From Candidatus Babeliales bacterium (GTDB taxonomy: Bacteria; Babelota; Babeliae; Babelales; JANWKD01): a DNA stretch of 64,000 nucleotides. The notes under the pieces were generated by a model. The model had not been told where the DNA came from and did no database searches. It was given only the letters and a program-made list of their open reading frames with translations. How positions within the stretch are numbered: position 1 is the stretch's first letter; every line of letters starts with the position of its first letter. The stretch lies in contig CAVRJM010000001.1 in NCBI GenBank assembly GCA_963722075.1, forward strand, positions 320,001 through 384,000. The letters are read 5' to 3'. The translations under genes and the position numbers were made by a program. This document shows positions 18,837-23,387 of the stretch, piece after piece.

Positions 18837-19148
18837 TTATGCGCGTTTAGTAGTTCTGCGTTTGTGGCTTGCTTTTTTAGCAGTAGTTCTTTTATGAGAA
18901 GCTCGTTTTGTCGTTTTGCGTTTGCTTGCTGCTGATTTACGACGCTTTGGTGTTTTTGCTCCCATGAACGCAGCTAATCCTGCTAATCCAGTTGCTTTTC
19001 TTTTATGCGTAGCTTTTTTTCTTGCAGCAGTTTTTCTTGCTGTAGTTTTTTTAGCTGCAGTTTTTCTTGCTGTGGTTTTTTTCGCTACTGCGCGTTTTGT
19101 TGTTTTCTTAGCTGTGCTTTTTTTCGCGCTTTTTCTTTTTGTTACCAT
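18837..19148 (-). CDS. Histone H1-like basic protein
   Basis: K/R/A/T-rich repeats (KKTTARKTAA), no acidic residues, AAGGAG RBS. Confidence 0.75.
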   Translation of the reverse strand: MVTKRKSAKKSTAKKTTKRAVAKKTTARKTAAKKTTARKTAARKKATHKRKATGLAGLAAFMGAKTPKRRKSAASKRKTTKRASHKRTTAKKASHKRRTTKRA

Positions 19149-19296: not shown

Positions 19297-21030
19297 TTAC
19301 AGGTTTGTAACGTCATTTTTTGCCTTTTGAAGTAACATTTCTAATGTAATGCCTTGTTCTTGTTTTCCGTCATTAAAACGTAGTGTTATAGTATTATTTT
19401 GCTGCTCTTTTTTACCCAATACTAACATCCATGGTATTTTATCAAGTTGAGCATTTTTAATTTGAGCGGAGATTTGATCTGATGATTCATCCATCTCTAC
19501 TCGTATATCATGCTCTTTTAGAGCAGTAAGAATGGTTAGTGCGTAGGGTTTTTGTTCATCAGTAATGGTTAAAATGCGAACCTGTATAGGAGCAAGCCAA
19601 AAAGGCAAATGCCCTTTAAAATGTTCCAGAAGAATTCCAAAAAATCGTTCTAAGGAGCCGTAAATTGCCCGGTGCACCAAAATAGGGCGTTCTTTATTAC
19701 CAGAAGGGGCAATATAACTGAGGTTAAAGCTTTCCGGTTGAAAAAAGTCAACCTGTATAGTGCCGCATTGCCATTCCCGTTCCATTGAATCCTTAATACT
19801 AAATTCAATTTTAGGGCCATAAAAAGCACCTTCACCCTCTTTTATTTCATAAGGAATATGTAATTGTTCTAAGGAGTCAGTGAGCGCCTGTGTTCCTTGC
19901 TGCCATAATTCGTCACTTCCCATTGAATTGGCCGGTTTAGTTGAAACCGCTACACGAACATTTTTAAAATTAAATGGTTTATATACGGCAAATACCAAAT
20001 TAATCATGGCGCTAATTTCGTCTTTTAATTGCGCTGGCGTACAAAAGATATGAGCATCGTCTTGAGTAAAGGCACGTACACGAAAAAGACCATGTAAGAC
20101 TCCTGATAGTTCATGGCGATGTACTAAGCCAAATTCAGCCAGTCGTAACGGAAGATTACGATATGAACGTGGTCTTTCTTTATATAATAATATGGCGCCC
20201 GGGCAGTTCATCGGCTTAATGGCATAACTTTTATCATCAATAAAGCAAAAATACATATTTTCTTTATAATGGGCGTAATGACCTGATTGTCGCCATAAAT
20301 CGTCAGTTAGTAATATAGGAGTAGCAATTTCTTGATAATTGCCTTTTTTTAAAAATGTCTTGATATACTCAATTAAAATATTAATAACAGCTTTGCCTTT
20401 AGGGTGAAAAAAAGGAAATCCAACACCTTCTTCATGAAACGAAAAAAGATCTAATTGCTTACCTAATTTTCTATGATCATACAGGGAAGCTTCCTCTTTG
20501 CGTAGTTCATAATTGATAAGGTCTTGTTCCGTTAAAAAAGCAGTTCCGGCGATACGCTGCAATGCTTGCTTAGAGCGATCAGCGCGCCAATAGGATCCTG
20601 AAATGGAAAGGAGTTTAAAATATTTAATTTCGCCGGTTGAAGCAACATGGCCGCCGCGGCATAAATCACAAAAATCGCCTTGGCATGAAAGCCCCACCGT
20701 TTCTCCTGGAATGGAATCGATTAATTCTAATTTAAAGGGATTTCCAGCAAATAGCTTTCGCGCTTTGTCTTTAGCAATTTCTTCATGAGTTATGGGATAA
20801 TTTTTTTCTGAAAGCTCATGCATTCTTTTTTCAATAAGCGCTAAATCTTCTTCTTTAAAATTACGCTTTGGTAGCATATCATAAAAAAAACCTTCTTCAG
20901 TTGCTGGACCAATTGTTAAAATGGTATCGGGGAATAATTCTAAAACGGCGTGTGCTGCTAAATGGGCCGCTGAATGGCGTAAGATTTGTAATTTTTCTTT
21001 ATTTTCCATAAGTTCCTTTTTTACGCTCAT
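19297..21030 (-). CDS. thrS: Threonine--tRNA ligase (lacks N-terminal TGS domain)
   Basis: RHSAAHL, DLCRGGH, DHRKLG, KPMNCP, RVRAFTQDDAH, GAFYGPK, HRAIYGSLERF. Confidence 0.97.
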   Translation of the reverse strand: MSVKKELMENKEKLQILRHSAAHLAAHAVLELFPDTILTIGPATEEGFFYDMLPKRNFKEEDLALIEKRMHELSEKNYPITHEEIAKDKARKLFAGNPFKLELIDSIPGETVGLSCQGDFCDLCRGGHVASTGEIKYFKLLSISGSYWRADRSKQALQRIAGTAFLTEQDLINYELRKEEASLYDHRKLGKQLDLFSFHEEGVGFPFFHPKGKAVINILIEYIKTFLKKGNYQEIATPILLTDDLWRQSGHYAHYKENMYFCFIDDKSYAIKPMNCPGAILLYKERPRSYRNLPLRLAEFGLVHRHELSGVLHGLFRVRAFTQDDAHIFCTPAQLKDEISAMINLVFAVYKPFNFKNVRVAVSTKPANSMGSDELWQQGTQALTDSLEQLHIPYEIKEGEGAFYGPKIEFSIKDSMEREWQCGTIQVDFFQPESFNLSYIAPSGNKERPILVHRAIYGSLERFFGILLEHFKGHLPFWLAPIQVRILTITDEQKPYALTILTALKEHDIRVEMDESSDQISAQIKNAQLDKIPWMLVLGKKEQQNNTITLRFNDGKQEQGITLEMLLQKAKNDVTNL

Positions 21031-21113
21031 TTGAGAATGGGCGTATAGTATGTAATTATATAGTGATTATTTTGAATGAATCTAGTAAATAATCTGGTTA
21101 TTAACAATAAAGG

Positions 21114-21148
21114 GTAAGAAAAAATAGAATATACTGCCTTAGGCAGTA
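21114..21148 (-). terminator. Putative attenuator/terminator hairpin overlapping the leader stop codon
   Basis: TACTGCC-TAA-GGCAGTA followed by TATTCTATTTTTTCTT on the minus strand. Confidence 0.55.
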
Positions 21149-21240
21149 GTAGCTAAAGGAGTGGTGATGTAAAGCGTATTTTGGAAATAAACAGCTTTTG
21201 AAAAAATAGAGGAATTATACAGTGATTTGTAATAATCCAT
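21139..21240 (-). CDS. Putative Thr-rich leader peptide of thrS (33 aa, MDYYKSLYNSSIFSKAVYFQNTLYITTPLATTA)
   Basis: AAGGAG RBS 7 nt before ATG; 5 Thr in last 12 codons; upstream of thrS on the same strand; below the ORF-track length cutoff. Confidence 0.7.
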   Translation of the reverse strand: MDYYKSLYNSSIFSKAVYFQNTLYITTPLATTA

Positions 21241-21279
21241 AAAAAAACTCCTTTTAGGATTAAAGTAGCATATACGTAT

Positions 21280-21308
21280 ATAATAACAAATACCTATTTT
21301 TTTATCAA
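21280..21308 (-). promoter_or_regulatory. Putative sigma70 promoter of leader/thrS
   Basis: TTGATA-N17-TATTAT with extended -10 TG. Confidence 0.55.
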
Positions 21309-21401: not shown

Positions 21402-21935
21402 ATGAAAAAAAAAGAAGTAACTATACCTTCCTGCGATTCGCGACCACGGGTGTATACTATTGGGCATTCGACACGTCCGTTAACAGAATTTATAGAGATA
21501 CTCGATCAGTATACTATTAAAAAAATAATTGATATTCGTACGATTCCAAAATCGCGTCATAATCCGCAATTTAATACCGATCATCTTAAAAAGTTATTAA
21601 AATCTCATTATGTGCATATAAAAGGATTAGGTGGATTGCGTCACCCTAAAAAAGATTCAATTAATCAAGGATGGCACAATAGTTCATTTAGAGGTTTTGC
21701 TGATTATATGCAAACCAAAGAATTTGCGGGTAGCCTTGCACGTCTTATAAAATATGCACAAAAAAATCCGGTGGTCATTATGTGTGCGGAAGCGGTTCCA
21801 TGGCGCTGTCATCGTTCGCTGATTGGCGATGCATTATTAATTCATGGCATTGATGTGGTAGATATTTTTAGCCAAACAGCGTGTAAACCACATACATTAA
21901 CTTCGTTTGCACGGGTATCAATTACGTACCCGTAG
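21402..21935 (+). CDS. DUF488 family protein
   Basis: YTIGHSTR, DIRTIP.SRHNPQFN, FRGFADYM, MCAEAVPWRCHR. Confidence 0.9.
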   Translation: MKKKEVTIPSCDSRPRVYTIGHSTRPLTEFIEILDQYTIKKIIDIRTIPKSRHNPQFNTDHLKKLLKSHYVHIKGLGGLRHPKKDSINQGWHNSSFRGFADYMQTKEFAGSLARLIKYAQKNPVVIMCAEAVPWRCHRSLIGDALLIHGIDVVDIFSQTACKPHTLTSFARVSITYP

Positions 21936-21980: not shown

Positions 21981-23387
21981 ATGACTGGAGAAAAAATCTA
22001 TCTTTTGGATACTAGCGTTTTGATATATGACCCAGAATCGCTTTTTAGTTTTGATAAAGCATTAGTGGGAATTCCAATAATAGTTTTAGAAGAATTGGAT
22101 AGATTTAAAACAGAAAATACTGAGCGAGGTGCGTCAACGCGAGAGGTTATACGTAAATTAGATGAGTTGCGCTTGCGTGGTTCTTTAAAAGATGGGGTTC
22201 ATTTAGAAGGTGGTGGTACCATTCAAGTATTATTTTTGCCCAGCGACCCCTATCCCTCTCCGCTTAAATTAAATATTGCTGATAATGAAATTTTAAAAAT
22301 ATCATTATGGCTTAAAAATAATGGCTATAATGTTGATTTTATTTCTAAAGATATCAATGCACGCGTGAAGGCAAATTCCTTAGGTATTAAATCAAGTGAC
22401 TATATCAAAGAAGAAGAAAATATACACGATAAAATTTATAAAGGATGGATGCAGTTTGATGTTCCATCAATTCAATTAAAAAAAGATTTCCCTGATATTT
22501 TACCGGAGCTTATAGAAGAAAAAACTATTATTCAGAATCAATTTGTATTATTAAATAGTAAAAATAATCCATATAATTATAAAATTTATCGCTTTACCGA
22601 TAAACAATTTATACCGGTGCATGCTCCTGATTTGCGTTGGGCATTGCAACCACGTAACCCGCAGCAATTGATGGCTCTAAATTTATTGTTTGATCCGACC
22701 GTTTCGTTGGTATGCTTGGTAGGCCCAGCCGGAACAGGAAAAACATTTCTAGCGTTACTGGCCGGATTGCATCAAGTGTTAATGCAGGATTTATATCGAA
22801 AAATGTTAATTTCGCGTCCAGTGATTCCCCTTGGGCCTGATATTGGCTACCTTCCCGGTACTATTGAAGAAAAACTGCATAGTTGGATGCAGCCTATGTA
22901 TGATAATATGGAATTTATTGCCTATTCAGCTAATAAAGCCGTACAAATAGCGCATCATTTTGAAGGACAGGAGTATTATACCGGTAAGGATAGAAATCGA
23001 CGACGCAAAAAAGAAGCTCATGTAAAAGAGGTTAATCATAAGCGGGTTCTTGCACCGCTTGATCAGTTGACGCGTGAAGGACGTATTAGCTTAGAAGCAA
23101 TTACCTATATGCGCGGTCGCTCCATTCCATTCCAATATATTTTAATTGATGAAGTACAAAATTTAACCCCCCATGAAGTTAAAACACTCATTAGCCGTGT
23201 GGGCGAGGGAAGTAAGATTGTATTAGCAGGGGATCCATACCAAATTGATGCACAGTATTTAGATTTTAGTAGTAATGGATTGGTAGTTGCTAGTAATAAA
23301 TTTAAAGGGGAATCAATTGCGGCAACGGTGTTTTTAGAAAGTAGCGAGCGAAGCCCATTAAGTGAATTAGCAAGTAAATTGTTGTAA
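21981..23387 (+). CDS. PIN domain-PhoH family ATPase (PhoH2/YlaK-like)
   Basis: LDTSVL PIN N-terminus; GPAGTGKT, GYLPG, YMRGRS, DEVQN, GDP.Q.D. Confidence 0.92.
   Translation: MTGEKIYLLDTSVLIYDPESLFSFDKALVGIPIIVLEELDRFKTENTERGASTREVIRKLDELRLRGSLKDGVHLEGGGTIQVLFLPSDPYPSPLKLNIADNEILKISLWLKNNGYNVDFISKDINARVKANSLGIKSSDYIKEEENIHDKIYKGWMQFDVPSIQLKKDFPDILPELIEEKTIIQNQFVLLNSKNNPYNYKIYRFTDKQFIPVHAPDLRWALQPRNPQQLMALNLLFDPTVSLVCLVGPAGTGKTFLALLAGLHQVLMQDLYRKMLISRPVIPLGPDIGYLPGTIEEKLHSWMQPMYDNMEFIAYSANKAVQIAHHFEGQEYYTGKDRNRRRKKEAHVKEVNHKRVLAPLDQLTREGRISLEAITYMRGRSIPFQYILIDEVQNLTPHEVKTLISRVGEGSKIVLAGDPYQIDAQYLDFSSNGLVVASNKFKGESIAATVFLESSERSPLSELASKLL

Follow-up and report, generated by a model that had tools for sequence, protein, structure and literature searches.

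At the thrS operator of Escherichia coli, threonyl-tRNA synthetase (ThrRS) binds an mRNA structure that resembles tRNA, with anticodon-like stem-loops next to the thrS ribosome-binding site, and in the enterobacterial thrL (RF00506) and pheM-pheST systems the cognate codons of a short upstream open reading frame (uORF) read the charging of the tRNA. Attenuators before thrS were reportedly predicted by Lopatovskaya in 2010. Streptomyces lividans TK24 has a thrL leader ahead of thrS (PMC8079986), and in the Bacillus cereus group threonine T-boxes stand before thrS as well as before an amino-acid transporter (PMC2494555). In the tnaC, speFL and cruR systems the ribosome shields Rut sites (PMC12360218). 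Rho dependence has also been proposed for actinobacterial cys leaders, whose cognate codons adjoin the stop and which lack a terminator (PMC1262725); section 7 of the same work reports that changes to the candidate regulatory codons of an ilvB overlap leader in Streptomyces coelicolor were without effect. Attenuation by a uORF is already known as a kind, including at thrS, where a leader peptide has a published precedent in Streptomyces (PMC8079986).

The locus described here lies in a genome of 1.47 Mb (~35% GC) that probably belongs to the Dependentiae, a phylum described as almost wholly host-dependent (PMC6561590); among named genomes, a thrS search gave five close relatives, and the nearest ThrRS sequences include records of Candidatus Dependentiae (62%) and Babeliaceae (58%). 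The promoter-like site, ribosome-binding site, 33-codon ORF and stop-in-loop hairpin proposed in the first-pass annotation were all recovered on the minus strand of the window (the whole 64-kb stretch of DNA analyzed), at the positions collected in Table 1. The leader peptide ends in TLYITTPLATTA (translation of 21240-21139), and all five of its Thr codons fall within the last 12. Past the hairpin stem comes the tract UAUUCUAU, in which a U6 run (21124-21119) starts at the eighth base; the U-rich tract that had been noted is present but does not adjoin the stem, and therefore there is no canonical terminator U-tract. The distance of 108 nt previously given from the uORF to thrS derives from an upstream in-frame ATG at 21030. 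The ATG at 21009, 129 nt past the uORF stop, appears the likelier start because AAGGAA is present at 21018-21013 and the homologs align from there. One small hairpin is found immediately 5′ to the thrS Shine-Dalgarno (SD) sequence, and the TATAAT motif is placed 54 nt before the thrS start.

Table 1. Features of the leader-thrS locus (window coordinates) and loci of uORFs before BrnQ-like genes
Feature	Position	Strand	Basis or remark
Predicted sigma-70-like promoter	21280..21308	minus	TTGATA-17-TATTAT, TG before -10 (extended -10)
Shine-Dalgarno AAGGAG of leader ORF	21248..21253	minus	sequence; AAGG-type SD in homologous leaders
Leader ORF (thrL-like), 33 codons, C-rich and G-poor (C24:G7)	21139..21240	minus	
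Thr codon cluster, codons 22, 26, 27, 31, 32 (inferred sensor)	21145..21177	minus	
7-bp hairpin TACTGCC-TAA-GGCAGTA, loop = stop codon, position conserved	21132..21148	minus	
Spacer, weakly structured, pyrimidine-rich (C21:G6), contains U6 21119-21124; candidate Rho loading/termination zone	21019..21131	minus	
TATAAT, weak candidate for an internal basal -10 box of thrS	21055..21060	minus	
Shine-Dalgarno-like AAGGAA of thrS	21013..21018	minus	
thrS, threonine-tRNA ligase, inferred regulated gene	19297..21009	minus	TIGR00418 658.5 bits, cut-off 383.65
BrnQ uORF loci	G000:C1:555289-555447 (L281); L278-L282, L284-L286, L294, L299, L300, L303, L304, L306		

Around the leader, a DUF488 gene (window 21402-21935, plus strand) lies between it and a phoH-like gene (21981-23387), and thrS is followed by a gene (18837-19148, minus strand) for a 103-aa Lys/Arg/Ala-rich protein with a weak, below-cut-off match to the histone H1-like HC2 family. 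Overlapping the uORF on the plus strand (21101-21180) is a promoter-like TTAACA-18-TAGAAT in antisense orientation, after which come a site similar to AAGGAG and a start-stop ATG-TAA; it may be a mirror of the leader sequence or the promoter of the DUF488 gene.

At the coding Thr frequency of this genome, the probability of at least five Thr in 12 codons is 3.6e-4, rising to 1.1e-3 under the base composition of the uORF itself, and the probability that all five Thr fall in the last 12 of 32 codons is 0.004. Genome-wide, only 1 of 61 SD-bearing uORFs has five Thr in its last 12 codons, namely the thrS leader, and the 276-nt leader region has a folding z of -3.5. A REP-like repeat element was ruled out, the exact hairpin being present once in the genome. 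An Rfam scan of the 64-kb window returned only three tRNAs, with one chance-level match near the locus; the Thr_leader model RF00506 gave no match at the locus and was over the gathering cut-off in 0/5 genomes. Among 21 motif-picked candidate genes of this genome (~15 synthetases, without identified enzymes for Ser, His, Pro, Gly and Asn), no other synthetase had an SD-led, cognate-rich uORF. Three upstream regions in G000:C1 (144537, 1134491 and 1413490) contain the same 63-codon frame with its flanks, which suggests a repeated or mobile element.

Thr-rich uORFs were looked for upstream of thrS in relatives, in 175 of the 251 genomes with a thrS match (30 + 95 + 50 held out; one further region was too short and was left out), and were found: 16 of the 175 regions have a uORF with the leader anatomy and at least three Thr among its last 12 codons, and a genome-wide pattern search added two more. 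A Cys-rich variant ending in CxxCxxCG occurs in five regions, all from genus g21. The other 154 regions have no leader, including that of the same-genus genome G001 and the thrS of G004; in many of these leaderless relatives a divergent phoH lies directly upstream of thrS and leaves little room. The leaders span 6 of 21 families, and on this comparison the element is conserved yet patchy in the phylum. A leader precedes thrS in G003, where the ACTGCC-TAA-GGCAGT is identical, and in G033, G149 and G159; homologs of the uORF ending in TTA-stop are found in these four and in G004, and the identical 15-nt hairpin with TTA-stop is shared by three genomes of two genera. Leader length ranges from 20 to 46 aa and the N-terminal sequence is free to vary (a CFKL...AQF stretch is common to the G004 and G033 leaders), while the C-terminal Thr codons and the hairpin are retained.

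The hairpins fall into three classes. In class A the stop lies in the loop (ACUGCC-UAA-GGCAGU here), and the stems elsewhere, for example UGGGCG/CGCCCA, have changed in sequence and kept their pairing. Class B has the form RCCGGS-N4-SCCGGU followed by the stop, with one compensatory pair change and 36/36 cells paired, a level that 81 of 500 shuffles also reach. Class C has a 10-13 bp stem with the stop within the 5′ arm. Five of six class A leaders have a -35/17/-10 match at a distance of 39-45 nt upstream of their ATG. Near-matches to class A read in context comprised 13 loci, one being G004 and the other 12 not leaders; exact-pattern matches in metagenome contigs (seven loci) included none before thrS or an SDF-family transporter gene and were taken as chance. 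A further zero-mismatch class A match (G233:C1:109479-109493, minus strand) is far from thrS.

The excess of threonine in the leaders is frame-specific. A Thr-blind rule (a uORF that begins with ATG, ends 60-220 nt ahead of thrS and has a hairpin of -5 kcal or better at its stop), written after the Thr-rich cases had been seen, selects 15 of 125 regions; Thr makes up 25.6% of the last 12 codons in the selected uORFs vs 6.0% in 277 other sense uORFs, and at least three Thr are present in 12 of the 15 vs 0 of 13 antisense controls. In the 50 held-out regions the rule selects a single uORF, with 6 Thr of 12, and an SD-based rule gave 14/60 vs 84/1480 in the held-out set; because related genomes are not independent, the p-values of these tests are overstated. 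AC dinucleotides are distributed 46/7/3 by frame and all four Thr codons are in use (28/18/16/13), which indicates a codon-level signal that base composition does not explain. A gene-blind search of 261 genomes for the class B hairpin gave 12 matches, six within genes and six intergenic, and all six of the latter are Thr-rich frames before thrS (five) or an SDF gene (one). The first-pass proposal of a Thr-sensing leader peptide is upheld by this frame-specific Thr excess, by conservation in relatives and by the recurrence of the leader on a transporter gene: an SD-led uORF enriched in cognate codons stands before the matching gene, and the leader before thrS very probably senses threonine, likely through charged tRNA-Thr.

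Cys is also enriched (2.3- to 3.3-fold). The genus g21 leaders have only one or two Thr in their last 12 codons; L013, L183, L184, L188, L190 and L191 end in C-x-x-C-T-x-C-G-stop with a long hairpin, and visual inspection of L013 suggests a possible 8-bp competing helix. The g21 leaders could add Cys, zinc or redox sensing (ThrRS is a zinc enzyme).

How would the leader act? The first-pass annotation had proposed a terminator that a ribosome stalled on Thr codons masks directly, with no antiterminator; in this model the terminator would be intrinsic, weak and perhaps assisted by NusA or NusG, and a stall on Thr31 or Thr32 would give read-through. The lack of an antiterminator fits the folding. 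With the ribosome footprint blocked, no competing antiterminator helix was predicted; the 5′ arm has a best alternative partner of -2.9 vs -10.6 kcal for the native pairing, and the stem persists at a probability of about 1.0 with stalls at Thr22, Thr26 and Thr27. The last Thr codon lies 3-9 nt from the 5′ arm or inside it in 12/12 Thr-rich hairpin leaders, Thr-richness and hairpin occur together (12/19 vs 3/125), the class B stem shows the compensatory change noted above, and the tails of L208, L237, L247 and L013 are U-rich enough for weak, factor-assisted intrinsic termination. Several observations weigh against a masked terminator. The stem is lost with the ribosome at Thr31 and Thr32 and is hidden as fully with the ribosome at the stop codon. 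The 8 nt past the stem differ widely among leaders (UAUUCUAU, ACACUAUU, AUCUUAAA, CAUCAAAA) and no U-tract is conserved. On a terminator score, 20 of 21 leader hairpins fall below 0 (the thrS leader at -19.6), and 15 of 60 convergent gene ends exceed 0.

Geometry bears on the same question. About 14 nt of RNA lie inside the polymerase, and about 15 nt separate the P site from the front of the ribosome. With these footprints, the ribosome cannot finish and leave before the polymerase passes the release point at +15 from the stop. At pyrL/pyrBI it is a closely following ribosome that prevents termination (PMC10135430), and such coupling would give the leader the pyrBI sign, opposite to what a synthetase needs. 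An intrinsic terminator is on these grounds unlikely, and we infer that the hairpin is a pause or timing element instead. Overall, the leader acts like a leader-peptide attenuator yet is outside the classical type, since folding shows no antiterminator on stalling and the terminator score points to no strong, GC-rich intrinsic terminator with an adjacent U-tract. Two further structural features were considered. Self-sequestration of the leader SD is strong here (0.96 paired) but was rejected as a general feature, since across 18 SD-bearing leaders it does not exceed codon-shuffled controls. In five leaders the 3′ arm can pair over a long range with a segment at about +85 to +92; this pairing was set aside because it overlaps -10-like motifs and the arm lies under the stalled ribosome.

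The best explanation, to which we give a probability of roughly 50%, is a leader-peptide attenuator in which a ribosome that stalls on the final Thr codons keeps Rho from ending transcription; provided that the leader does sense threonine, the Rho route is somewhat better than an even bet. Rho is favored because the U-tract is unconserved, 20 of the 21 hairpins are not terminator-like and a terminating ribosome would also mask the hairpin. The leader and thrS would be transcribed together from the upstream promoter. With Thr-tRNA plentiful, the ribosome would complete the uORF and leave, so that the C-rich, G-poor uORF and the spacer become bare; Rho would load on this RNA and stop transcription before or early in thrS, likely within the 129-nt spacer. 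With Thr-tRNA scarce, the ribosome would park on the final Thr codons, where the uORF ends, block Rho arriving from upstream and leave too little free RNA until ribosomes load on thrS, and thrS (or the transporter gene) would be transcribed. The stop-codon hairpin may then act as the pause or timing element or give the cut transcript a stable 3′ end, and the Thr cluster at the end of the uORF would be the best place for a stalled ribosome to block Rho. A rho gene was over the cut-off in 5/5 genomes (650 bits in this genome, cut-off 509). The C:G ratio is ~1.9 in the leader ORFs (346:188) and tails (149:78), whereas control uORFs have ~1.1-1.2 and coding DNA has 0.92, a skew that is no more than suggestive of a Rut-like signal in an AT-rich (35% GC) genome. 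The spacers between leader and gene are 83-183 nt long and weakly folded. Counting against this explanation are the patchy distribution, the Cys enrichment together with the Thr-poor ends of the g21 leaders, the Thr run in one BrnQ leader (L294), the U-rich tails and the ineffective codon changes in S. coelicolor ilvB, a comparable overlap leader.

The same spacer could serve another end. If the stalled ribosome or the refolded hairpin governed the entry of a nuclease into the spacer, the leader would set the lifetime of thrS mRNA, and an AU-rich, weakly structured segment beside a small hairpin would suit an endonuclease site; we consider this quite unlikely, and it leaves the C>G skew within the uORF unexplained. 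It is improbable that the uORF is an independent small-protein gene with thrS served by its own nearby promoter, for example a gene whose product regulates ThrRS or the transporter or, in the CxxCxxC type, senses Cys or a metal. The uORF does have its own promoter-like site, SD and hairpin, a TATAAT stands close before thrS, Cys is enriched and an N-terminal stretch is common to two leaders; against this, it is the C-terminal Thr codons and hairpin that are kept while the length and the N-terminus vary, and the leader peptide had no match in Pfam. Translational attenuation, in which stalling remodels the RNA and frees the thrS ribosome-binding site, is known for mycobacterial polycysteine uORFs (10.1101/834739, in part) and is highly improbable here, with the predicted accessibility of that site 0.52 both free and stalled at thrS, shifts of at most 0.15 in the 20 leaders scored, and a long spacer. 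Finally, it is scarcely credible that the ORF and hairpin arose by chance in an AT-rich intergenic region: the promoter match by itself is at chance level (6 found vs 6.3 expected) and most relatives lack the element, but the identical hairpin and TTA-stop across genera, the recurrence in six families and on a second gene, and the held-out and frame tests all speak against it.

That second gene encodes a transporter of the SDF family. In G004 the exact class A hairpin ends a 46-codon uORF that precedes not thrS but an SDF gene and contains a Thr run, with 7 Thr in the last 12 codons; a class B (G214) and a class C (G257) leader likewise precede an SDF gene. Leaders were found in 3 of the 43 SDF upstream regions read and not in the other 40, a count that leaves out one mis-centred region. 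The only NCBIfam match of the G004 SDF protein is to SstT (50 bits, cut-off 308), and a structure search with the SDF transporter returned only distant aspartate/glutamate symporters. The SDF gene is beside thrS or one gene from it in 6 of the 43 genomes that have one: directly before thrS in four, divergent in one and one gene off in one. In the former four it lies directly upstream on the same strand (G031:C12, G047:C75, G011:C54 and G057:C20), and no leader was found in the three of these that were read. An uncharacterized clade of SDF transporters is predicted, from sequence alone, to import threonine, and thrS and the SDF transporter are likely switched on when threonine is short.

At 14 of 33 loci, genes for BrnQ-like proteins (PF05525) are preceded by SD-led uORFs of ~30-65 codons in which Leu, Ala, Ser, Ile, Cys, Val and Met are abundant. 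Thr makes up 4.9% (17 listed uORFs), and most of these leaders have a pyrimidine tail without a hairpin. L294 is an exception with a Thr run at its end, and two BrnQ leaders resemble the thr leader in that an ITA-stop end lies in a CAGCC-TAAG-GGCTG hairpin; the G001 copy of the BrnQ uORF has an apparent frameshift. With Thr-rich leaders on thrS and SDF genes vs Thr-poor ones on BrnQ-like genes, the leader codons track the downstream gene, although Cys is frequent in both leader sets. One joint reading, which we hold tentatively and at rather less than an even chance, is that antiterminator-free ribosome-sensing leaders gate Rho phylum-wide and read the host amino-acid supply, that the gate is a ribosome stalling right where the uORF ends, and that the codons name the substrate of the transporter, with Thr-coded leaders on thrS and SDF genes and Ile/Leu/Val/Met/Cys-coded leaders on BrnQ-like genes.

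These leaders point to amino-acid sensing in a host-dependent phylum. Threonine synthase was over the cut-off in none of the five family and order genomes tested, and we found no publication on leader peptides in Dependentiae in the literature outside subscription journals and supplements. If the joint reading is true, reduced intracellular parasites with hardly any amino-acid synthesis of their own sense the supply of the host. The leaders would represent a third mode of thrS control beside autorepression and T-boxes, and the compact stop-in-hairpin design makes the mechanism easy to test in E. coli.

Unlike classical thrL and pheM, the Dependentiae leader lacks an antiterminator, a strong terminator and an Rfam match. 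It shares with S. lividans thrL a short ORF with Thr codons before threonine-tRNA ligase and one hairpin with no clear U-tract (PMC8079986). However, the S. lividans thrL is leaderless, with 18 aa and two central Thr (PMC8079986, in part), whereas the Dependentiae leaders are SD-led, span 20-46 aa, cluster 3-7 Thr at the C-terminus, have the stop within or next to the hairpin and occur also on a transporter gene; no sequence likeness between the two is evident by eye. Actinobacterial ilvB leaders similarly have regulatory codons that overlap a candidate hairpin, but have poly-U terminators and, in Corynebacterium, an antiterminator (PMC1262725; PMC10272879; both in part). The cys leaders of the same phylum resemble the Dependentiae leader in having cognate codons beside the stop and no terminator (PMC1262725). 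The Thr T-boxes of the B. cereus group are likewise a single type of Thr sensor on thrS and on an amino-acid transporter (PMC2494555, in part); unlike the leader, a T-box binds tRNA directly, and T-box RF00230 was over the cut-off in 0/5 genomes tested. In tnaC, speFL and cruR, as proposed for this locus, a pyrimidine-rich Rho site would be covered by a ribosome that halts as it reaches the 3′ end of the uORF, and the stall in those three systems is brought about by ligand binding of the nascent peptide (PMC12360218, in part), whereas in the Dependentiae leader it would be brought about by uncharged tRNA, with a hairpin that encloses the stop.
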